Source of the DNA: Priapulus caudatus
Taxonomy: Eukaryota
DNA: 52,920 nucleotides
NCBI RefSeq assembly: GCF_000485595.1
Contig: NW_014577067.1
Coordinates: 374,564-427,483 of the forward strand
Direction of reading: 5' to 3'
Part shown: positions 34,921 to 52,920 of the stretch, piece by piece
Numbering within the stretch: the first letter of the stretch is position 1
Layout: the number at the start of each line of letters is the position of its first letter
Notes under the pieces: generated by a model
The model's input: only the letters and a program-made list of their open reading frames with translations
Database searches by the model: none
Told to the model about the DNA's origin: nothing
Translations under genes and position numbers: made by a program

Positions 34921-36179
34921 TGATCGCAAATATTCGAACCGAAAATAACCGAACCGAAATGTGAAAACCGAAAACCGAACCGAACCGTGAAGTTGTGATT
35001 CGTTGCACCCCTACCTTTGACCCCCAGCTTCGACATCCCAACTCGTTTTGACGATCCCCCCGACGTCCCGAATATCATGACCGTACGTCGAGCGGTTAAG
35101 ATTTGTGCCCAACTGTTGACGCACGCACGCACAGACGGCCGGACGGACGCACGCTCATGCGATTCTACAAGCTGCATCTCACTATGTCAGATGAGCTAAA
35201 AATGAAATGACCGCCGATTTGAAGGCAATCCGAAACACCCGACTCTTATAAGATGATGCAGTCCTCCTTTCTTGCCATGGACGTGATAAACGTGGCAATC
35301 CATGGTTTGAGTTGTCCAAGTGGCGCCAGTCAGTTTCATAGCAGCAAGAGATTTAATTGATATTGTGACTCACTCGTGACTAAAATAGGGTTCGGAAGAG
35401 TTATTAGGAATTTGGCACTATTGCTTTATCAGTTTTTGCTAATGGGTGAATCTATACTAAGTAGTCCTATAGTAATATTGATATTTATACTTATACAAAA
35501 CATTATAAAAATAAGTATAAATATTAAAATAAATGAAAGTGTCAATAACACTGTAGCTCACCACAAAAAAGGACACAAATGAGTGAGTGAGAAGAAGTCA
35601 GTTTTAATTGAGCAACCATCGACGTACATTATAGAAACGAAATTGCCATCTGTATATCGTATAAATAATTTATAAACCAAAATGAATCACAATTTGTGAC
35701 GGTAGATGGCGCTATACCCGCTTTGATGTTTCTTAGCATAAATCATTATATCATAATAATAATAGTATAAATCATAATATGTTCATAGCAGGAATTTTGC
35801 ATTATCGTTGACCCTAGCCAAATGTTGACGGACGGACGGACGACGACCCATGGCAATAGCTCAGCTTGACGATGTCAAGGTGAGCTAAAAAGAGGATATT
35901 CAAAAATCAACCCTTTGCATATAATTATAACGCATGTGAACCAATTACATCACAGGCCACATAACCAGAATCATCCTGCTAATTGCTACCAGATGTTGCC
36001 TGCTCTATCACTACTTCCTACACATACCAAAGCCACCCAGACCGATGACAAACGTCTTCATGAGTAGAAACTGGTTCTATGATACCAGACAGTTTATATA
36101 TAGAGATATATATATAGTACCAGAAGTTAATAAAGACAAAGGAGTTTGACACGTATTTGGTACTGATTTCACTACATAC

Positions 36180-36632
36180 TCGGTCTGTAGCCCTTGGCTG
36201 GAAAGTGGTTTTGCGCAACTTCTCAGATCGTGCGCTTTGAGTGGCGCCACCGTCGTTGTAATCAAACTGTAGTAGTTAGTTTTAAAACATTTTTTTTTAA
36301 TATTTCTAATGGTGATTGAACCATGAAACTTTTTATGTAGCGCAATTATAACCTAAATTAGCTGAAAATAACCCTAGAACCTAGAGGCTACTGTTCCTTT
36401 AAATTAATAAATAAGAAACACCCTCGGTCTGTAGACCTTGGCTGAAAAGTGGTTTTGCGCAACTTATCAGATCGTGCGCTTTGAGTGGCGCCACCGTCGT
36501 GTAATCAAACTGTAGTCGTTAGTTTTAAAACATTTTTTAATAATATTTCTAATGGTGATTGAACCATGAAACTTTTTATGTAGCGTAATTTTAACCTAAA
36601 TAAACTGAAAATAACCCTAGAACCTAGAGTAA
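36180..36632 (+). mobile_element. Two orphan RIGHT ends of a TTAA-flanked (Kolobok-like) element
   Basis: ~205-bp direct duplication (36180-36390 / 36423-36630); first ends CCTAGAGGCTACTGTTCCT|TTAA at 36398; second is interrupted by another element. Confidence 0.75.
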
Positions 36633-36635
36633 AAC

Positions 36636-40062: not shown

Positions 40063-40425
40063 CTAGACAAATTAATAGTGTCTATTAGATGCAATTAACC
40101 TCTCCAGGTAAACAGGAATAAATGACATACAGCCCATTACAGCGTCATATATTGCACAAATATATACAACAATTAACCAGTCTCTCGTTTGCTACAATAC
40201 ACGTAGACAATCACAACACTGTCAGCAAAGATGAGAAATGGAGTTGATATTAATTATTATTAGGTTTCTAAAAATCGGAAGATTTGGCATTCTGCCACTA
40301 TGCAGTCAGTCTGACGATCTAGGTGTTGAAAGTGCACATGTATGTGTGTAGAACTATTTAACACAAATTTGGAAGCTGGGCAGAAAAGAACAAAAGCAAC
40401 CATATCTTTTAAGGCACATGGTTAA

Positions 40426-40682
40426 AGGGAGAGTTTACTCTAGGTTCTAGGGTTATTTTGAGCTAATTTAGGTTATAATTACGCAACATAAAAAGTTTCA
40501 TGGTTCAATCACCATTAGAAATATTTTAAAAAAATGTTTTAAAACTAACGACTACAGTTTGATTACAACGACGGTGGCACCAATTAAATTAGGTATCTGG
40601 TAACAAATACGTGTGGGTATAGACGATTTGTTATACAGTAAGTACAGTTGTATGCAGTAAAATCCTAGAGGATACCGTCCCT
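40426..40682 (-). mobile_element. Complete short copy of the TTAA-flanked Kolobok-like family
   Basis: TTAA|AGGGAGAGTTTACTCTAGG...CCTAGAGGATACCGTCCCT|TTAA; one half matches 36250-36398 and the other 44189-44285 (both reverse complement). Confidence 0.8.
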
Positions 40683-40808
40683 TTAAAAAAAATCAACCAG
40701 AAATGTACCCTCTAACCCCGAGTATGGGTCAGATCAAGAGTAGATAATAACACATTAACTATGTGTTATTATCTACTCTTGGTCAGATAAAAAGAGATAG
40801 AAATATAC

Positions 40809-40900: not shown

Positions 40901-41753
40901 GAAATATACTAATATAGCATTATGCATTAATTATGTTATCAATTGGCAAAATACCAGGTGTAGTGTGCGTGATAGCAATACATAATGTCAGGCTGTGATG
41001 ACATTGCAATTGGTTATTTCTCTTGCCTAAGTTCCGTAGTGTATGATGCCGATCTAAACATTGAAAAAATGGTGTCACGAGAGCATCAATACGCGAGGAG
41101 AGGCTTCTCTCGCCACGATACACATGCACTAGGAGTCTATGACAAGTGGGCTGTCAACATCTTCACCACACTTCAATCAAGGGTTATTGTACACACTTTA
41201 GGTATGTTGAGTGACATGGGTTAAAGGCATGGGGAGGTCCTTGGTACTATTTATATATTGATATTATGTGGTACCGTTTTATTGACACACCAAAGTTCAG
41301 ACTGACCAAAGTTCAGATACTATATATATCATGTATATGCTATAACCAGAGGTTCATTTGATATAACTGATATGAGAAACCTTTAAACCCTACACTGTAT
41401 GGCTCAGGTTGTAAATGCAATAAAATAGATAGACGCTGTTAAAACATCAACATTAATAACATTTATGTTATGATTGCCTTTGCTGCATACATTTCTCTAC
41501 ATAAAGTGGCTCATACAGACTTGATGTGCCACTTAAAATTTAATTACACACACAACATGGTGACGTTGGGGAAACTATAATCTCCGAATGAAAACTTTTC
41601 ATAGTTCAAAGGACTATAACAAAGCTAGACCAAAACTAAAGACCACTGCCACAGGAGTTTTTCAAACAGAAAAGCCAGTCCAGCACAAAGTTCAAAAGTA
41701 CTGACTCTGTCAAAACACTCACCTAAATACAGATTACACTTAGTACAGCTCAT

Positions 41754-42005
41754 AGAGTCTATGTCCCCCAGGGTACTGCCAGAACGTACCATGGGTACGG
41801 TTCGGTATACCGGAACGTACCCTGGTAACTATTTGATATGGTTAGGGTTAGGGTTAGGGTTAGGGAGTAGGCGTAGGCGACTCCCTAGACTCGTTAGTGG
41901 AGTAGGCGAGGTACAGTCCGGCATATTAGATAGTACCAGGGTGTTCCGGTATACCGGACCGTACCAAGGGTACGTTCCGGCAGTACCCTGGGGGACATAG
42001 ACCCT
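41754..42005. mobile_element. Palindromic MITE with internal (TTAGGG)4
   Basis: ~63-bp arms TCTATGTCCCCCAGGGTACTGCC../..GGCAGTACCCTGGGGGACATAGA; TTAGGG x4 at 41842-41865. Confidence 0.8.
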
Positions 42006-43154
42006 CTCAGCCTTAGTACAAAGTACATGCACCTCGTACACATACGTATGCAGACATTTTTATATAAACCAGTATCATTATTTATGACTCAACAAATTTA
42101 AACGTGGTTGCTTGAACATTGGTCAATAGTTAGTAGTGAAAAATAAATATATCTTTACATTGGGAGCGCCCACGCTACTCTAATCCAAAGGCAAACCCAA
42201 GAATGGATTTATGCCAATCATTATCATGGTAGCCTGAACTGAACATCTACGCATAAATTTTACTAGGTTCACATGCAGGCCATTCTAGCTGTCTTTGGCT
42301 GGTCTATGTTGTGCCATGCTACCAGAACTTTCAGAATGCTACTTTCAATTTAGACAGTGTGTTGACTTAAATTAAACAATATCAAAAACTAGTGAGGTCT
42401 GGAGCATTCTATATGGCAGATGAAAATGTTACTTTGGGTAGAATTTTGAGTGTACCATTGGTTGTATATTTTTCATCTAAATCTGGAGTTAAAACATACA
42501 GAAAAAACACACGAACTCTTGGATATTTGAAATGATTTTAGGAGTTATGGTGTAAGGAACAAGAGGTCTGAGCTATAACACCACAGGCCATGTTTCACTT
42601 ATTGCTCAATAGCGATAATATTTCTCCTCAAAGTAAAAAATAGGTGCATTCCTTCAGGGGAATACCGGTGGTGAAGGGGAACTAAGGGGCACCAAACCAC
42701 CTGGCTTGCTTTCACTACCAATATGTCATCATTGTGTTTAGGTTTTTTCAGGCTCTAACCTGGAGACCAAAAATTTATCTAAAGTTAGCTTCTGTTTACA
42801 TATGGATTATAGAATGAGATATATACAAAAAGATCTTCTCTTTGTTCATCAAATTTTTGCTGTAGCACCCGAGTTCATTGTGAACTGCTGTTGAAATAAG
42901 GCTGGATGCAGGGTGAACTGATTGCAGGAACTAGGAGTAGGACATTTTGTATACAACACATGTGAATGTCAATGAGCTGTCTAATGAACTCATGTGATAA
43001 CCATATATATGTTACACATGTCAATGTCCTGCCTAGCACTAGAACTATAGCCCTTTGAGTTTGATCTGCCAAGAGCTATAGTTCTAGAGCTATGTCCTGC
43101 CCAATTTGTCGGTAGCTGACTGCATATTTATCATATAAATTTTAATTACGGCAA

Positions 43155-43705: not shown

Positions 43706-43826
43706 CTGAAACACACACACGTCAATAAGTAGCCATTGCTAGATAAGCTAGTGTCAAAAACCATCCCAAAAGCATTCAGATTGGTCTACAAGAGCTATAC
43801 TACTAGTATATACCAACAGCCATTAA

Positions 43827-44343
43827 AGGGATAGTAGACTCTAGGATTTTACTGAATACAACTGTACTTACTGTATAACAAATCGTCTATACCCACATGT
43901 ATTTGTCATCAGATACCTAATTTAATTGTTATAATTAATTACGCATCACTGCTACGAAATTTGAACGGCGCCATGACACCCGCGACCGTGCTGCCACCCT
44001 GAAAAACTTGCGTATTTGCCAATTTATTTTGCACGTTACAGACCGAGGGCTAATCACAAAGATGCAATTATATTCATACCTAAATGCTATTTAACCGAAC
44101 GATGTTCATTTGAGGACAAATTTATCCATAATATAACTGAAACTATATGTCGTTTATAAGATATTACAATTAATCCTTTTGCTTTTAAAGGGACAGTAGC
44201 CTCTAGGATTTTACTGCATACAACTGTACTTACTGTATAACAAATCGTCTATACCCACATGTATTTGTCACCAGATACTTAATTAATTATTTACACATCA
44301 ACGCTACGAAATTTGAACGGCGCCATGACACCCGCGACCGTGC
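43827..44343 (+). mobile_element. Two orphan LEFT ends of the TTAA-flanked Kolobok-like element
   Basis: TTAA|AGGGATAGTAGACTCTAGG at 43827 and TTAA|AGGGACAGTAGCCTCTAGG at 44189; ~160-bp direct duplication. Confidence 0.75.
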
Positions 44344-47300
44344 TATTATTTTGCCATAAGGTAGTATGATTATGCATGACACGAAGTATTTGCTAGTCTA
44401 GTACTGGAGAAATTAGCGTTTGGATGCGCATTGTGAGCCTTTAAGTTACGTTGCACCCATGCTGGGTTTAAAAATTAAAACTATTTTACATTGAAACTAT
44501 AGTTAGAATGCCTTGTTTTTATTGTTGAATCCCGCAGTTTTTTTAAATAAACGCTGCGGTGGTAAAATATCTGAACTACTTCACCCCCGGAGGAATGATG
44601 TGTATGAATCTTAGCGAGTATGACGCTCCAGCTGATTGTAGTTTTTCGCACGTGTTTTGCATAGCAACCGTTACTATGCAATTGCAGGCAAACGCATGTG
44701 TTTACACCTTACTTATCATGACCATCTGTATGTGATAAAGGCGAGAGTTAACCTCGTCATCGCTGGGCTTTGTTAGCCGAACAAAAACTTCTTCGGGAGA
44801 TAACGTACGGGAGACGCGATCCCTGTCGCGCCACCTTCCAGTTGCTGTGTATGCGAATTTACCACTTGGCTACGACACACGACGGTAAATAACGTGAAAA
44901 CCATGTCGTGCAAAAGTACGATTTAAGTCAAAACGAAGAATGCTACGCGGTTTGTAATACTACCGGAAGATGGAATAAGGACCAGTGAACAAAAGAAGCT
45001 CATGTTTGTATACATTTTATATTTTTACTCACATCAAACTCGTACGACAAAATTTAGTGAAATCAGTGCCAAATACGTATCAAACTCCTTTGTCTTTATT
45101 AACTCCTGATACTGATAGTACCAGTCTATGTATTGTACCAAGAGATAAATAATATACACAGAAAGGAGATTTGCCAAAGAATGGCCGGTAGTCAACATTT
45201 GATAGTCTGAAGTATAAACTGTGTTGAAGGTTCTGAATTGTAAGTTAATGAACTATTTGTCAGAATTCTCATAGGATGTTTAACTAGTACAGGAACAATA
45301 CATCACAAAACCATAGCCCATGTAGTAACACAGTTGAGATTTTATATAATAGGCTATTAATAGCACACGAGCTTGGCATTGCTTATAATTTTATTGTTCG
45401 GTGAACTGAAGCAGCATGTTGGTTCAAAGCAGTTTTGTCAAATTTTATAGGGAAAAGCATTTTGGCAACATTTTTAAATGTTTGAGAATAAGATCCAATG
45501 AATAATTAACACGACATTATAAATCCCTGCCTAAGCATTACTGGTCATATAAGTTTTTATAATCTAGTGATGAATAATAAATCCAATAAAATAAATTAAG
45601 GCACAGCAGCCAGTGATTTCGTTACGAATGCCAGCATGATAGCCCATTACACTGATAGCCTAGCAGTCAATTTATTTTTTGGGGGCTACTTTTCAAGCTC
45701 GCCCGCATGAAAATAGCACTCTAAAATTTGGTTTCCATTGAATTCTATGCAATTTTCCGGGGCTCTTTTTGGCATTTCGGGGGGCTAAATCGCCCCGAGC
45801 CCCCGTGTATTTTTTTCACTGCACTATATAGTGTTAATTAATACTGTTATGCTCAAGCCTCAAAAACACGGATACAATTATATTTCCTCGCCCCTTTCTG
45901 ATTTACTGTTGTAGCATTACACTTAGCAAAACGTTTTAGCTACAAAACTCTAGGACACAAATAACCCCAAAATATCCGCCAAATCGTTGCTCTCAGGTGA
46001 AAAAGCGAAGCATTGTATTGCAGATATAGAAGGATTTTAAAAGATAGCGGCAAGAGTAATAGTACCTATCAAACATTCATGAATGAACCTTTTCATTATC
46101 TTTTATAGTAACAGGCCCAAATGCTTTTGCAAGAGGCCGTGGCAGAGTGCGGGGGGGGGGAGAATCCCCCCCCCTAAATTTTTTTTCAAACCTAGATGTT
46201 CTGAGATGCAATCTGGTCTATTCTGAGCTGTAGTAAACAGACACATTTGAATTACAGTATGGTTCTTTTTTCCAATTTGGTTTCTCCTGGGCCTAGATTC
46301 ATCATTGGTACGTAAGTTAACGTCCATAGGCAGGCATCCTACGAAATGCGTACGTAACGTTCCTGAGGTTAATTCATCAAGCCGTCAGGACTAGCCCGTG
46401 CGTAGGCATATCGTTAATGAGTTGCACATAACCCCGTTAGTAGCAGCCGCATTCTTTCCTCGCTGCAGTATTTCATGTGACACCGTTTGTTGCCATACTC
46501 GCAGATAGGGCCTGCATACCTCCCAAAGTTATACTCGGCCAGGTTTTTAACGCATTCTAACTCTAAAACTGTTACGTTAAAAATTCTTAAAATATTTACA
46601 TAAACAGGCAAGACGGTTGTCATTTTGAATACGATTGACCTAAGATACCTTGACTCGATTGCAACACTGGCTGGTCAAATATAGACAATATGACGCGGGC
46701 GATCTAGCGGATGTGGTAGCAACTTTCGTGTGCATTATTGCTACTGCACTAAATATTTTGATTGTCCTCTCAGGAGTATACAGCAGAATGCCACCGGATT
46801 TGTATAGAATGCGGAATCTTCAGTGCTCGAAATAAGCGTTGTCCGGTTGTCCGAGACAACCAGAAATTGCGCCGGACAACCTAACCAGTCTGAGACATTG
46901 TCCGGTGGACAACCAAAAAACACTATCTCTAACCCTTACACTAACTCTAAACCGACTCGGCTATCTTATATACGCGTGGTACCCAATTAATCTATGGTGT
47001 ATAACCTTTTGCTTTCAATATTTTACATCTGAACTGACAATCAATCCCATGCAACCAACTGGTATAGGCTAGCTGGCACAATAATGTTCAGTTTCATACT
47101 TCAAATCCGAGTGTTTTCTAGCTCATCAACAAATCTTAATCGTGAATTAAATCGTGAATAATATAAAAATATGGGACCAGCTGCTATTTCCAACACTGGT
47201 ATAATATCATATGTCAGGTTTTCTGATTTATGAGAGGTGAACTCGATTTGAAACCAGCAAACCAGCAAGTTTCCAAAATTTTCTGGGGAAGGACCCCCAT

Positions 47301-47432
47301 ACCCCCCGCAATATTGAATCTTATCCACACGGCCGCCGTGCGTATAGGCACTTCCGTCAGTGTCACAGTGACTGTGTCAGTGACTAACAGTCACAGACGC
47401 TGACTGTGACTGTGACGGACAGTCACTGCATG

Positions 47433-48424
47433 GGGCCATGATAAAAATATTGTTTGTTTGCCCCCTCACCCGACTGACCCGCCAAAAAGGGGCCGACTGA
47501 AAAAAATGTATTAATCATTTTTTTACAAATTGTATCACTGTACATTATATAAATCTGTAAGCAATACATTATATGTACCAAGCAAAACAAACACGTACTC
47601 AACATAAAAGGTATCTCCACACAAGCACACCCGAGCATGTAGACACTATGCTAAATTTGTAAAAAGACCCATTTAAAAAAAAAGCCTACCTACATACCCA
47701 AACTTTTCAGCCGGGGTCAGCTGAGGGCAATTTAAGGAAATTTTTTTTTAATTGTGGCTTGACAGCTAGTTGACACAGTCAGTGACTGTACGTGTCAGTG
47801 ACACTGTCAGTGCCACTGTGCTGCATGCCATGGGAAGTAACCTCATAGTCGTAGTTGGATGTAACCTCGTAACTAATAAAGATTGATGTAGGGATTTGAT
47901 AAAATCGATAGAACACTGCCGATTGCACTGGAAAACGTTTCCATTCTACAATTAACCATATAATCGGATTGGTTATTGTGAAGATAGCATGTCTGAGAGT
48001 TAAACATGACAAAGTAAATAATTCATCTATGACACATCCATGTGGGAAATTAAAGTTTTATAATGTTATTAACACTGAAAATACAATTAAATCTAGCACA
48101 GGCCATAATAAAAATATTGTTTGTTTGCCCTCACCCGACCGACCCGCCAAAAAGGGGCCGACTCAAAAAATTTTATTGATCTTTTTTTTAAAACAAATTG
48201 TATCACTGCACATTATATAAATTGGTAGGCAATACATTATATGTACCAAGCAAAACAAGCATTCAACATAAAAGGTATCCCCACTCAAGCACACCCGAGC
48301 ATGTAGACAACATGCTAAATTTGTAAAAAGACCCCCCCCTGCCCTAAAAAAAAAGCCGACCTGCATGCCTACCCAAACTTTTCAGCCTGGGTCGGTTGAG
48401 GGCAAACAAAGATCGGAGTGGCCA
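47433..48424 (+). mobile_element. Two copies of a ~325-bp GGCCA...TGGCC element (~47433-47760 and ~48101-48424), PIF/Harbinger-like termini
   Basis: Clearly alignable direct copies (ATAAAAATATTGTTTGTTTGCCC...CAAACTTTTCAGCC); superfamily call is inference. Confidence 0.7.
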
Positions 48425-48463
48425 CAGAGATTCCTAAAGTTCTTATCCATCTTCTACTTGCAG

Positions 48464-50770
48464 TTTGTTGTGGTTATCTATATGACAAGTGAACGACATC
48501 CTGTCATTTGCCGCAGTGAAACTGAGGAATATTTTGTTGACCCAGTTTCCAGTACCAAAAAAAGGTTTCCGAGTCTTTCAGCACCGGCAGAGCTTCAACT
48601 GTCTGTTATTGTGCCTGCATACAATGAGCAAGAAAGGTGTAAGTACCACAGAGGACCTAAGGTTGACTTACTTACATCTAAGTATTATGAGGTAAAGATG
48701 AAGATTCATTTTTGGCTGGAGTGGAGGGTATAGATGTTACTAGTTGTCAGCATGTTTACATCAGTGACAGTATGTTTAGCACCCATTTCAAGTGGTTAGT
48801 TGAGCATTAACCAACTTCTGCAATATATCTTGTTAATTAATGTGATGCATAAAATAATAAATGCCATAGACTGTAAGTGTCACTTTGTCTGTTTTAGTGC
48901 CCAAGATGATGGATGAGTGTCTGGATTACTTGGAAGCTAGAAGAGTAAGTACACATGCAGTGATAGTGTATATGGTTCGGTTAGCATAATTGATGTCATT
49001 GGTGTCTATTGTATGTCATTTTCATACAATAAATGGAATGGTTCTTATTTTTATTCCTTGGTGAAAATAAAATAAAATGTAGTTTCATTTTTTGTGCCAT
49101 TTCAATTGTACTGTCTGGCTGAAAAACCAAGACCCTAATACTACCATCTTCGATTTACAGAAAGAAAGTGAACATTTTCAGTATGAAGTTATTGTGGTAG
49201 ACGATGGGAGCAGTGACAAAACAACAGAGGTTGGTATATGATGTGTGTGTGCTTGCTCTGCTGAATTGTTAAGCCTAGCAGGTATTTAATGTCCAATAGT
49301 TGCTAATATATAACATTGCTATTGTCTAACTCAGTATATATTGTCACACCTTTTAGGTCGCACTGAAGTATTCTCACAAGTTTGGTACGGATAAAGTTAG
49401 AGTTCTGACTTTTGAGAAAAATAGAGGAAAGGGAGGAGCAGTGAGACTAGTAAGTAAAGTCAAAACACACTTAGGTAGGAAGTTTCAATCTGTATTGTAC
49501 AAGATATAATCTACAACTGTGGAAAACTAATCTGTAATACAACACATTTTGTAAAGAATATTGTAAAGAACACATATTGTAAAGAAATAAAAAATGATAG
49601 CAATGTTGAAACAGTGTTATTCTATTATAGGATTATGGTTAGAATTTCACCAAATCAATTTTGCTTTATATCTACCGGTGCTCTCAACCCCTATTACATA
49701 TATCTGTTTATCTAAGTGATAATATTGTAATATGCATTTATCCATTCATTCATGACAGGGTATGATGAGTTCAAGAGGAGAACATTTGCTGTTTGCTGAT
49801 GCTGATGGTGCATCTAGTTTTCCTGACTACTCCAAAGTGGAAATGAAAATGAGGAAAATATGTGATAGTAATAAGGTAATTCCAACAAATATTTTTAGCC
49901 ATCTTGCAAAAAAACATCATTGCTGTATGGAGAAGACTCACATAATAGACTCAGGCAGCAGCAGCCACAACAGCAATGGTAACAGATGTTACAGGAGTAG
50001 CAACAGTTGTTGTAGGAGCAGCAGTGGTAGTAGTAGCCACAGGCAGTAACAACAGCAGCCATTCAATTGAGTAATTTTTGGTCTTGCAGACTAATGAGGC
50101 GATAGTTTGTGGATCAAGGGCTCACTTACAAGACGAGGCTGTTGCAACAGTGAGTGTGATGTTACTTCTCGTTTATGCATGCACCAGATTTAAATTTTTC
50201 TGCTTCCTTATAAAGTTTCACCAAGGAAACTTCACAATTGTGACATTCTTAGGCGTTCTGCCATCGTCTGTTCTATATTCTATTATATAACTATCTAAAA
50301 AATATCTTGGACTTTACAAAGAATATATGTCTATGCTGGTACAATGGCTATGCTGGCCCTCCTTAAAAGTCAGAGACTATTGTGCATAACGAGGGGAGAG
50401 GTGTTAAATGATGTTGCCACTTATTGAGTTATTGAATCTGCATTGCTTCAGTAGTTGGTTATCTGTAATGTACAGTCACAAAAAGTGTGAACCTAATGAT
50501 ATTTCTGCCTTACGCTTGACTCTAGAAAGTCAATCGTTGTATGAATATTTTTTTCTCAATAATTAGCATTTCAAGTATCCATTATCATTGTAAGTGTCCA
50601 TTATCATATTGATTTCAGCGTTCCTTATTTCGGACTTTGTTGATGCACGGATTTCACTTCATGGTCTGGTTGCTATGTGTAAGAGGCATCAGGGACACCC
50701 AGTGTGGCTTTAAGCTTCTCACCAGGCAAGCAGCTCGGTCAACCTTCAGTAACCTTCATGTCGAACGCTG
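48464..50770 (+). CDS. ALG5: Dolichyl-phosphate beta-glucosyltransferase ALG5, exons 2-8 (48464-48638, 48898-48944, 49161-49229, 49357-49449, 49759-49875, 50090-50149, 50619-50770); terminal exons not found in window
   Basis: LSVIVPAYNEQERLPKMMDECLDYL; YEVIVVDDGSSDKT; NRGKGGAVRLG; LLFADADGA; CGSRAHL; GIRDTQCGFKLLTR..LHVERW; GT2 family, phases consistent. Confidence 0.96.
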
Positions 50771-50835
50771 GTGAGTGTTAGCGAGTGCCCGGTCCACAGG
50801 GGCATTTTATACTCTGTATTTATAGAGGATCATGC

Positions 50836-51043
50836 AGGGTTTCTTCTGAGGGAAAATTAGACAAAGGAGGTAATGGCCAGTTTGGGAAAAAAACGCGCAC
50901 GTTGGATTCAAATACAGGATGTATTGATATAGATATAGGATATACTTATCAGTAAATAGTAAATACAGGAACATTTTCACAACGCCGATGTTAAATTTGA
51001 CAACGGCGGTGCACCACTGTGCCTCCTATGTATAAGAAACCCT
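50836..51043. mobile_element. hAT-like MITE
   Basis: CAGGGTTTCTT / AAGAAACCCTG; flanking ATCATG duplicated. Confidence 0.75.
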
Positions 51044-51697
51044 GATCATGTATTGTGAAGGTTGGACAATTGAATTATTGTTGTCAACTTTCATACTAGT
51101 AGTGTTACCGTAGAACATAAGCAGGTTTAGTTTATATTTGATGGCTATAATTTATGTTGCTACAAAGTTATCAGTATCATGCACTCACATCATAATTATG
51201 TAAGTAGTCACCTTCTTTCCTTCCTTCCTTCACTTTACAATATAACTGCAATAAAAGGATACAAGGATACACAAACACTCAGCCATGATACGATGTGTTT
51301 ACGTTTATCATTGCTTGCTTTTTGATCTCTGTCCTTTTGATGAAACGGTTATAAATTCTCACTATAGCCCGCGTTCGCGGCCTGCGGCAGTTTATCGAAC
51401 GCGGGCTATAGTACTACTACTAGAGCTACGTGTGGATGGGATGGCATGCGATGGCATGGGATAGATGGGATGGAACCAAGCGGGTTGAAGTCAACTGAGT
51501 AACGCCTACCTCCCATAGCCTAGCGCCTAGTCTCTCTACTCACACCTTCGGTGCTCGCATTGGGGGATTTAGATATAGGTGCCTGTGGGCAACGCCGGGT
51601 ATCCGCTAGTACCTGAATATTCTTCAACATCCAAGAACCTGATACTGTCGCTGTACTACTAGGGCCTACTAGTTTTAAACACGCGCGCTATGCTTAC

Positions 51698-51786
51698 CGC
51701 TTTGAAACTGCTGAAGCAGTTCCGAGAATACGCTGACTTCTCAATAAATGTTGAGGCAAACGGTGACAGATTCTAAACGCAGACAT
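51698..51786 (-). CDS. ACADL: ACADL exon 1 (mitochondrial presequence)
   Basis: MSAFRICHRLPQHLLRSQRILGTASAVSK(R): Arg/Ser/Leu-rich with no acidic residues; donor CG|GTAAGC is phase 2, matching the acceptor of exon 2. Nine exons total 1299 nt = 432 aa. Confidence 0.85.
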
Positions 51787-52304
51787 GACAGAACTGATTG
51801 GTTGCCAAGTGCTGAGCCCTGAGCCAAGTGCTCAAGTTGACAACCAGTTTTTCCCCACGAGATGGCAGTCCAGAATAGACGGCACATTTGTCCATAACTT
51901 GCAGCTCCAGGGGACAATGCGCTATAAGTTCAGGAACAGTGAGCCCATCTAAGTCGAGTAACCATAATAGAGGTAACCAGATAACTAGCTGGTAGGTGCA
52001 ATTATTTTAATATCAGTATAAACTATGTATGGTTTAAATTTATAGTAATATAAACCTAGTTTTATTACGGTAATAATTTAGTATATGCGATACGATTGTT
52101 GTGTTTAAAATAAAATGAATGAATGTGAAAAAAAAAGCCGTATATTCAATGTTCATCAGTAATTTTTGCCAGACCAAATTCAGATTTTAGTGTACTCCAA
52201 TCTCAGCCTGACGTCACGAATTGTAGCGCTGAGTTGGCAGCGTTATTTGCATCAGTTCATTTGTAAATACACACATTTTGCAGTATTTTTCACATTTTAG
52301 CATC
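51787..52304. promoter_or_regulatory. Bidirectional promoter between ACADL exon 1 (-) and ALG5 exon 1 (+)
   Basis: Divergent ATGs ~520 bp apart; TGACGTCA at 52209-52216; ATTTGCAT at 52245-52252; CTGATTGG at 51794-51801. Confidence 0.65.
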
Positions 52305-52379
52305 ATGTTATTAGACCCTGATGTCATAGTTTTGATAGTATACTTGTTAACTGCAGGAACTGCGTTCCTTCTATGTATG
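52305..52379 (+). CDS. ALG5: ALG5 exon 1 (N-terminal membrane anchor), downstream of exons 2-8
   Basis: MLLDPDVIVLIVYLLTAGTAFLLCM with phase-0 donor ATG|GTACGT, continuing as the hydrophobic FVVVIYMT of exon 2; no comparable first exon found upstream of 48464. Confidence 0.8.
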
Positions 52380-52606
52380 GTACGTTTTCTATCCAGCAAT
52401 ATTCAATAAGTTAATTTCTCATCTTAGCAAACTCGATAATAGCAGTGTCAGTGTCAGTGACAGTGACTGTGTCAGTTGACAGTGTCATGACTGTGTCAGT
52501 TGACAGTGTCATGACTAGCTGTCAGTTGACAGTGTCAGTGACTGTGCAGTGACTGTGTCAGTTGATAGTTGACAGTGTCAACTGACAGTGTCAGTGATGG
52601 CCGAGA

Positions 52607-52892
52607 CTATACGCACGGCGGCCGTGTAGATAAGATTCAATATGGCTATACGCACGGCGGCCGTGTGGCGGACTCAATATGGCTATACGCACGGCGGCCG
52701 TGTGGATAAGATTCAATATGGCTATACGCACGGCGGCCGTGTGGCCAACTCAATATGGCTATACGCACGGCGGCCGCGTGGATAAGATTCAATATGGCTA
52801 TACGCACGGCGGCCGTATGGCCGACTCAATATGGCTATACGCACGGCGGCCGTGTGGATAAGATTCAATATGGCTATACGCACGGCGGCCGT
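52607..52892. repeat. Tandem array of alternating 39- and 37-bp units (7.5 units), preceded by a (GTCAGTGACAGT)-type low-complexity tract 52443-52596
   Basis: CTATACGCACGGCGGCCGTGTGG-[ATAAGATT or CCGACT-like]-CAATATGG; unit starts 52607, 52646, 52683, 52722, 52759, 52798, 52835, 52874. Confidence 0.9.
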
Positions 52893-52920
52893 ATTAGTAG
52901 AGGTTCTAAGCACATGGAGT

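Follow-up and report, generated by a model that had tools for sequence, protein, structure and literature searches.

A split ALG5 gene flanked by inverted copies of a high-copy repeat in the Priapulus caudatus draft assembly, most likely an assembly artefact

The ALG5 locus and its transcript

The DNA analysed is a contig window of 52,920 nt from Priapulus caudatus (hereafter the window), which is free of N throughout and matches the ALG5 model of this species at 100%. Eight ALG5 exons, a probable exon of the neighbouring gene ACADL and several repeats are found between 47311 and 52892 (Table 1). In the window, exons 2-8 come first and exon 1 follows about 3.9 kb downstream, all on one strand, and two arms consisting of a low-complexity tract and 37-nt repeat units lie in the two halves of intron 1, after exon 1 and before exon 2.

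Table 1. Features of the ALG5 locus, in window coordinates
Feature	Position	Strand	Evidence or remarks
Left arm: lone reverse-oriented 37-nt repeat unit	47311-47347	-	Exact reverse complement of 52683-52719 and 52835-52871
GTCAGT-type tract, left part, self-complementary low-complexity	47356-47428	.	Self reverse-complement match 47353-47419
MITE-like repeat copy A, 324 bp, interrupting the left tract	47434-47757	+	86% over 311 nt vs 48101-48405; very high read depth
GTCAGT-type tract, right part of left arm	47760-47820	.	Tract pattern search
MITE-like repeat copy B, just 5' of exon 2	48100-48410	+	Likeness to copy A; X9 depth
ALG5 exons 2-8	48464-48638, 48898-48944, 49161-49229, 49357-49449, 49759-49875, 50090-50149, 50619-50770	+	tblastn; RNA joints
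High-copy repeat between exon 8 and exon 1 block	50835-51018	.	Read depth, contig ends; variable flank at 50835
Second repeat between exon 8 and exon 1 block	51362-51586	.	Read depth, contig ends
Probable first coding exon of ACADL, divergent from ALG5 exon 1	51698-51784	-	X8 contig piece 51698-51799; ATG, GTAAG donor
ALG5 exon 1 (5' UTR from at least 52233, ATG 52305, donor GT 52380)	52233-52379	+	RNA joints to exon 2
GTCAGT-type tract, right arm	52443-52596	.	Pattern search, TRF; self-folding
Tandem array carrying forward 37-mers, 7.5 units of 38/39 nt	52607-52892	+	TRF; high copy in DNA reads

The coding part of exon 1 (52305-52379) encodes an ALG5-type N-terminus with a membrane segment. 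RNA joins position 52379 to 48464, 3916 bases backward, in the transcript contigs X8 and X5, which come from two runs of two studies, and in one raw read (X11); the donor of exon 1 and the acceptor AG of exon 2 at 48462-63 are both canonical. The X8 contig (1582 nt) carries 48 nt of exon 1, exons 2-8 and then, from beyond the window, exon 9, whose sequence codes for AFDVE..., and continues for about 800 nt more, while the X5 contig (610 nt) joins 146 nt of exon 1 (52233-52378) to exon 2. All six of the other ALG5 introns covered by RNA have GT..AG ends, the joints among exons 2-8 being supported by the X8 contig as well as by raw RNA reads, and a single X1 contig spans exons 2-8 (48418-50860, depth 28.9). 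ALG5 exons 1 and 2 are parts of one ordinary mRNA. The exon labels of the original prediction are correct, and its claim that a downstream exon 1 is spliced to exon 2 is borne out by the RNA joints. Because this joint runs backward on the window, transcript and assembly are non-collinear. Among the joints and loose ends listed from the RNA reads, none linked exon 1 to exon 9 in cis. The RNA runs come from other samples than the best-matching DNA runs, and fixed differences from the window are seen in their reads at many positions.

Circular RNAs usually form by splicing of a donor to an acceptor that lies upstream of it, between flanks that are complementary to each other. The ALG5 joint has this geometry, and a back-splice promoted by the flanking inverted repeats was therefore considered. 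However, exon 1 holds the start codon and the N-terminal membrane segment, and the X8 contig is linear, leading from exon 1 through exon 8 into the downstream exon 9 and beyond. A circular RNA is thus extremely improbable, and was rejected.

A high-copy tract-and-unit repeat in both halves of intron 1

When up to three mismatches were allowed, the 37-mer was found at five sites in the whole window, one on the minus strand (47311-47347, 0 mismatches) and four on the plus strand at 52607 (1 mismatch), 52683 (0), 52759 (1) and 52835 (0), and none of 100 shuffles contained any match. Its 20-nt core occurs nine times, once reversed (47325-47344) and eight times forward in the array. The inverted match around the left arm extends to 43 nt at 95% (47308-47350), and a weaker match (62 nt at 84%) continues across the spacer and enters the tract. 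By TRF, the array has a period of 76 with 3.8 copies and 96% matches, equivalent to 7.5 half-units of 38/39 nt. All 10 matches of the GTCAGT-tract pattern in the window fall within 47364-47814 and 52441-52598; an X1 contig (47654-48127) and an X2 contig (47623-48065) run without a break from the right part of the left tract into the unique sequence preceding exon 2. Folding of the tract and array side (52380-52920) gave a z of -8.1. These data confirm the exact inverted 37-nt match, the coordinates predicted for all three tract segments, and the presence of the same tract-plus-unit module, in opposite orientation, in both halves of ALG5 intron 1.

The exact 37-mer had 0 matches in metagenome contigs, a protein search with a 75-aa reading frame of the array returned no candidate, an uninformative outcome, and no tRNA was found by a scan of 44000-52920. 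An Rfam scan of the same stretch returned two microRNA-precursor-like matches on the tract, both far under threshold (29 vs 110 bits; 24.3 vs 63).

The copy level of the module was estimated from read depth. In the Hi-C raw reads (X9), whose mean depth over 12 unique bins is 1.25 at a nominal cover of about 3.8 and is too thin to test junctions, the array bin reached a depth of 129 and the tract/array bin 84. The summed word depth of the repeat was 29276 vs 28.9 for unique sequence in X1, and 11084 vs 13.3 in X2. Relative to single-copy sequence, the array repeat is thus enriched about 30-100 times by raw-read depth and about 1000 times by summed contig depth. Moreover, a family base displaces the window base at 47348 (132 of 133 reads), 52628 (167 of 182) and 52777 (133 of 142). 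At 47348, the boundary of unit and tract, the family base is T, so that family copies carry the unit and the tract as one module; the original prediction that one element was inserted into a pre-existing low-complexity tract is therefore doubtful. The prediction had also been set against the possibility of a repeat so abundant that the pairing would be expected by chance. By depth, the module is indeed a high-copy family, which touches on this condition. Chance alone, given tens to hundreds of loci in about 512 Mb, is not expected to place two copies 5.3 kb apart; the two arms are thus probably related to each other, as originally held.

Foldback-type transposons have long inverted arms built of tandem subrepeats. 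The ALG5 arms resemble them in being an inverted pair of the same sequence (37 nt exact, 43 nt at 95%) with a short-period, self-folding tract and 38-nt tandem units, present in many copies genome-wide. They differ in that the number of units is 7.5 in one arm and one in the other, that neither a target-site duplication nor a transposase was identified here, and that it takes the inferred block order to make the arms point inward.

Depth was also informative about a collapsed tandem duplication, in which a second copy of exons 2-8 would lie 3' of exon 1 and have been lost from the assembly, so that a single wrong join would explain the transcript. The exons 2-8 block and the exon 1 block are equal in depth (28.9 vs 27.9 in X1; 13.3 vs 13.0 in X2), indicating that there is no hidden second copy of exons 2-8, and a single Priapulus ALG5 protein was found. 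The duplication, contradicted by the equal depths, is highly improbable and was rejected.

Block order in the draft assembly

Other repeats separate the unique blocks of the locus. The flanks of the two MITE-like copies vary among reads at 47434 and 48100, and the bin with copy B (48079-48309) has an X9 depth of 734 vs about 1.25 in unique bins. In the interval from exon 8 to the exon 1 block, the first repeat gave an X9 depth of 209 and an X1 word depth of 33387 (bin 50851-51081), and the X1 and X2 contigs end at 50860 and resume at 51017-51019. The second repeat, which follows on a 16-nt perfect hairpin at 51352-51406, gave depths of 89 and 4787, respectively (bin 51313-51543), with contigs ending at 51327/51361 and resuming at 51587. 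Neither sensitive BLAST nor exact words of at least 13 nt revealed a repeat common to 50772-52304 and the other two ALG5 junction intervals; a simple three-copy-repeat account of the ALG5 swap was thus not supported. A search of the window with the RNA loose-end strings revealed only a 4-nt length variant of a repeat at 47049.

The contig survey listed the longest pieces out of more than 5000. The independent contigs listed (X1 and X2) cover only 47654-48127, 48418-50860, 51019-51361 and 51587-52626, and none of them crosses 46920-47654, the MITE at 48127-48418, 50860-51019, 51361-51587 or the array. As no listed contig crosses the separating repeats, the block order rests on scaffolding through repeats. 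The one assembly publicly available is a draft that has not been published, comprising 59,586 scaffolds with an N50 of 210 kb (PMC10280001). No chromosome-level Priapulus assembly was found in a literature search that included PMC13088399, although the Hi-C run X9 suggests that a long-read assembly scaffolded by Hi-C is under way.

ACADL, on the minus strand next to ALG5, is affected in the same way, its exon blocks being out of order by homology with their orientation kept: residues 39-246 map to 40049-37948, 260-339 to 43708-43269 and 331-433 to 30902-30042. The reading phase of its probable first exon, as read from the sequence, is compatible with the acceptor at 40063. Inverted repeat pairs flank block X (36242-36633/40422-40582), block Y (40581-40688/43823-44288) and both blocks together (36113-36177/45052-45117), and with pairs nested in this way three inversions would restore collinearity. 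The gene models of NCBI reflect the disorder. The ACADL-like model is shortened to 231 aa, and the ALG5-like model (322 aa) has its start at 48006-48013, in a bin whose RNA depth is 0 in three of four runs and 0.22 in the fourth, with no supporting joint listed. Both models are visibly forced and the ALG5 start is invented; they are wrong because the region is unreliable in the draft.

We consider it probable that small unique blocks have been mis-ordered between high-copy repeats, the two arms being copies of one interspersed repeat. The transcript and the assembled order conflict with orientation kept, and the single-copy blocks lie between repeats that none of the listed contigs bridges. 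As in known short-read mis-ordering of small contigs, unique blocks of 0.3-2.5 kb end at high-copy repeats, the order but not the orientation appears wrong, transcripts contradict the exon order, and gene models come out shortened or patched; unlike in such cases, the suspected joins here contain no N. In the animal itself, the block with the promoter and exon 1 (about 51587-52626) would lie upstream of the exons 2-8 block (about 47654-50860). The true intron 1 would then run from tract and array to unit and tract, and, whether these are two repeat copies or an inverted pair of foldback type, short reads would be unable to traverse it. The 37-nt complement would have no dedicated function and would mark the place where the assembler went astray, and the joins may have been sealed without N by gap closing or by a wrong path through the repeats.

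Several observations weigh against such a mis-ordering. No DNA record in the restored order was seen, at the thin unique cover of X9; three wrong joins would have had to be closed in sequence, the window being without N; no repeat common to all three junction intervals of ALG5 was found, only the outer inverted pair being visible there; two swaps inside 20 kb are many for chance error; and the closeness of the two arms, 5.3 kb apart, is more than chance would be expected to produce.

Trans-splicing and DNA re-ordering as alternatives

If the locus were truly non-collinear, two pre-mRNAs could be trans-spliced, with the array pairing with the reverse unit and tract, and exon 8 joined to exon 9 in cis. 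Both intron halves do hold complementary stretches and canonical splice sites, the complement is perfect over 37 nt with a duplexfold energy of -165.7 kcal/mol (52450-52672 vs 47294-47437), and the assembled sequence is gap-free. Nevertheless, the pairing would be non-specific owing to the high copy number of the repeat: unit and tract are abundant in DNA, and the RNA depth of the array is at least that of the exon 1 bin (summed depths of 4.9-7.5 vs 0.8-2.7 in the three raw RNA runs). Both intron halves also fold strongly on themselves, the block order is without independent DNA support, the exon 1 to exon 9 cis product is absent among the joints and loose ends listed, and the essential housekeeping gene ALG5 and its neighbour ACADL would both have to rely on the mechanism. 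We regard this form of trans-splicing as very unlikely.

In the split genes of Giardia, the complementary stretches are generally gene-specific. ALG5 resembles these genes in having canonical splice sites and in the complementarity between its intron halves, but differs in that its complement is a high-copy repeat only 5.3 kb away, the Giardia gene halves being far apart. Independently transcribed pre-mRNAs are joined there by trans-splicing (PMC8494341). Giardia Hsp90 is one precedent for repeat-flanked rearranged genes that are rescued in this way. A second precedent is eri-6/7 of Caenorhabditis elegans, where transposon insertions rearranged exons and trans-splicing via flanking repeats restores function (10.1101/2024.01.15.575659). 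At both loci, a gene piece whose position conflicts with the mRNA is flanked by transposon-derived repeat copies. Finished genomes establish the arrangement of eri-6/7, in which the piece is inverted, whereas ALG5 keeps its orientation and its DNA order is known from a draft only.

The assembled order could also be real but unexpressed DNA, either a rearranged haplotype or structural variant of the sequenced animal, or a germline order that is re-ordered somatically via inverted repeats. This would accord with the RNA samples differing from the best DNA sources and from the window at many fixed places, and with the inverted pairs flanking ACADL blocks X and Y, from which three inversions could restore the order. 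Nested inverted repeats, however, equally permit wrong but sequence-consistent assembler paths, ALG5 has the outer inverted pair only, and haplotypes in which two essential genes are disrupted should be uncommon, making this alternative improbable. To our knowledge, no programmed rearrangement has been described in priapulids.

The original prediction had proposed the 37-nt complement as a candidate guide for RNA pairing or DNA rejoining. This role is unsupported: the repeat is a high-copy family, no listed contig bridges the repeats that fix the block order, ACADL is scrambled alike, and the assembly is a short-read draft. With nothing specific in its favour, guided trans-splicing or DNA rejoining at ALG5 is very unlikely. 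That both ALG5 and ACADL are truly scrambled, with mRNAs restored by repeat-guided trans-splicing or by DNA re-ordering in the expressing cells, is similarly unlikely.

If the order were real, an essential animal glycosylation gene would be reliant on repeat-guided trans-splicing or DNA re-ordering, which would be striking for a slowly evolving ecdysozoan lineage. The split-gene arrangement at ALG5 is, however, most likely an assembly artefact and not a new mode of gene joining. The high-copy repeat of tract and 38-nt array likely breaks short-read assemblies in Priapulus caudatus, and the public draft is unreliable in this region, calling for caution in comparisons of introns, synteny and gene structure.

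The first exon of ALG5

The exon at 50619-50771 was 100% identical to P0002, the NCBI model of a dolichyl-phosphate beta-glucosyltransferase-like protein (ALG5) of Priapulus caudatus, which has 322 aa and is encoded on a scaffold of 1,178,442 bases. The exons of this model lie on the plus strand at 48410-50771, with the last 64 residues outside the window, and its start consists of 3 residues from ATGACAAA before GT at 48006-48013 (also position 48412). Three runs of raw RNA reads and a further run made up of transcript contigs were mapped to 46000-52920. The bin with this start exon had a depth of 0 in three of these four runs and of 0.22 in the other, and none of the joints listed involved it. 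The NCBI start exon is without RNA support, and the true first exon is 52233-52379; the original prediction of this exon proved both correct and useful. A 1582-nt contig of the transcript set X8, which includes 48 nt of exon 1, joins 52378/9 back to 48463/4 and runs on through six GT..AG introns to 50770, after which it codes AFDVE..., the next ALG5 exon. The same joint was found in one raw read of RNA run X11, and a 610-nt spliced contig of X5, a run listed as 'DNA?' by guess that contains spliced contigs and behaves as RNA, joins 146 nt of exon 1 (52233-52378) to exon 2. Three studies carry this joint, two of them in contigs (one run each) and the third in a single read, indicating that transcript and assembled sequence, in which exons 2-8 are followed by exon 1 and then by exons 9-11 beyond the window, are truly non-collinear. 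A circular RNA from a back-splice is contradicted by the linear X8 contig and is hardly credible. The product of exons 1 and 2 has a short head, a long hydrophobic stretch and then the conserved ...E.E.YF motif, the same N-terminal layout as in ALG5 of other animals.

Repeats in the two halves of ALG5 intron 1

A 37-nt word (37-mer) occurs in opposite orientation in the two halves of the split intron 1, confirming the predicted inverted repeat, and was matched in 0/100 shuffles of the sequence. The array with the forward copies can equally be described as 7.5 alternating half-units of 38/39 nt. As also predicted, a GTCAGT-type tract adjoins both arms, and in the window its pattern is confined to these tracts (10/10 matches). 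The high-identity part of the inverted match is 43 nt, and the spacer and the tract further out align weakly. The left tract is interrupted by a 324-bp MITE-like copy (A), whose sister copy B terminates just upstream of ALG5 exon 2, a few bases from the acceptor of the NCBI model; this family has a very high copy number and many RNA reads in both orientations.

Features of the window
Feature	Position	Strand	Details
37-mer, reverse copy	47311-47347	-	window match
37-mer, forward copies	52607, 52683, 52759, 52835	+	window match; 1, 0, 1 and 0 mismatches
Tandem array with forward 37-mers	52607-52892		period 76, 3.8 copies, 96% matches
GTCAGT-type tract, left	47356-47428, 47760-47820
GTCAGT-type tract, right	52443-52596
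MITE-like copy A	47434-47757
MITE-like copy B	48100-48410
Perfect 16-nt hairpin	51352-51406
Probable ACADL exon 1	51698-51784	-	in phase with acceptor 40063, judged from the sequence; divergent from ALG5 exon 1
ACADL residues 39-246 (block X)	40049-37948	-	homology
ACADL residues 260-339 (block Y)	43708-43269	-	homology
ACADL residues 331-433 (block Z)	30902-30042	-	homology
Inverted pair around X	36242-36633 / 40422-40582
Inverted pair around Y	40581-40688 / 43823-44288
Inverted pair around X and Y together	36113-36177 / 45052-45117
GGTTAG telomere-like hexamer	41840-41865		4.3 copies
76-nt inverted repeat	41741-41816 / 41943-42018

In the raw Hi-C reads X9 (nominal cover ~3.8), the depth was 129 in the array bin, 84 in the tract/array bin, 282 in the left-unit bin and 734 in the MITE bin, against a mean of 1.25 in 12 unique bins. 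The summed contig word depth of the array, which according to a warning of the software is not a copy number, was 29276 against 28.9 for unique sequence in the contig set X1 and 11084 against 13.3 in the independent set X2; the range is therefore given in array-equivalents, tens to hundreds. The base beside the unit, 47348, is a family T in 132/133 reads, and its counterpart in the right arm is 52606 (A on the plus strand), indicating that tract and unit form one family module and disfavouring the predicted insertion of the unit into a local low-complexity tract. Another high-copy repeat (46693-47310; X9 depth ~280-450 per bin) directly adjoins the reverse unit, and about half of its reads diverge at 47271 from the window sequence and share a single continuation (agreement 0.97 in 627 reads).

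The 37-mer had been proposed as a guide for RNA pairing or DNA rejoining. Trans-splicing guided by repeats at a genuinely rearranged locus has been described in other systems, and the predicted pairing is strong (-165.7 kcal/mol), but the 37-nt complement is non-specific, each intron half folds on itself and the DNA order assumed is that of the draft assembly. Thus, a guide function is not supported, and we judge such trans-splicing very unlikely.

The neighbouring ACADL gene

ACADL (long-chain acyl-CoA dehydrogenase), next door on the minus strand, shows the same kind of scrambling, and its NCBI model P0121 is cut to 231 aa, with an end that reads into an intron. The genes imply the order Z, Y, X, exon 1 block, exons 2-8 and the rest of ALG5, whereas the assembled order is Z, X, Y, exons 2-8, exon 1 block. 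Two exchanges between neighbouring blocks, of ~4 kb each and without a change of orientation, separate the two orders. At ACADL, the inverted pairs are nested, so that three sequence-consistent flips would convert one order to the other, which may illustrate how an assembly could follow a wrong path and still leave no gap; at ALG5, unlike ACADL, the outer inverted pair is the only one visible. The GGTTAG copies sit between the arms of the 76-nt inverted repeat. The first exons of ACADL and ALG5 stand head to head, ~450-520 bp apart (51698-52379), with a TGACGTCA motif at ~52210, and the interval is likely a bidirectional promoter.

Order of the unique blocks

Among the contigs listed, those of X1 and X2 are continuous over four unique cores only (47654-48127, 48418-50860, 51019-51361 and 51587-52626); all stop at each repeat and none crosses between cores. 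Of the data analysed, the assembly itself is the sole support for the order of these cores. The exon 2-8 and exon 1 cores have equal depths (28.9 vs 27.9 in X1; 13.3 vs 13.0 in X2), which contradicts a collapsed duplication of exons 2-8 and leaves it barely plausible. X9 depths of 209 and 89 were reached in the pair of repeats that separates exon 8 from exon 1. In one X1 contig near single-copy depth (25.6), position 51416, close to the hairpin, is followed after 13 extra letters by 47796, a position in the tract; the contig either represents another family copy with the hairpin before the tract or hints at a different true order.

The public assembly of the species is a draft that has not been published; it consists of 59,586 scaffolds, with an N50 of 210 kb (PMC10280001). 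We therefore consider it most likely that the non-collinearity arose when the assembly misplaced small unique blocks lying between high-copy repeats. The 37-nt complement would then reflect one repeat module that occurs twice, with opposite orientations, where contigs end. With the order restored, this module would read tract-array ... unit-tract inside ALG5 intron 1 and would be a single foldback-like element or a set of two copies. Since two copies 5.3 kb apart are unexpected by chance at the copy level, a relationship between the two arms is probable. Counting against mis-ordering, the window contains no N, the X1, X2 and X9 runs (X9 unique mean 1.25) yielded no DNA with the order restored, and no repeat common to all three ALG5 junction intervals was found. 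We consider it improbable that the assembled order is that of a genuine rearranged haplotype or that the DNA undergoes programmed re-ordering. The finding is of limited interest unless long-read DNA proves the assembled order real.
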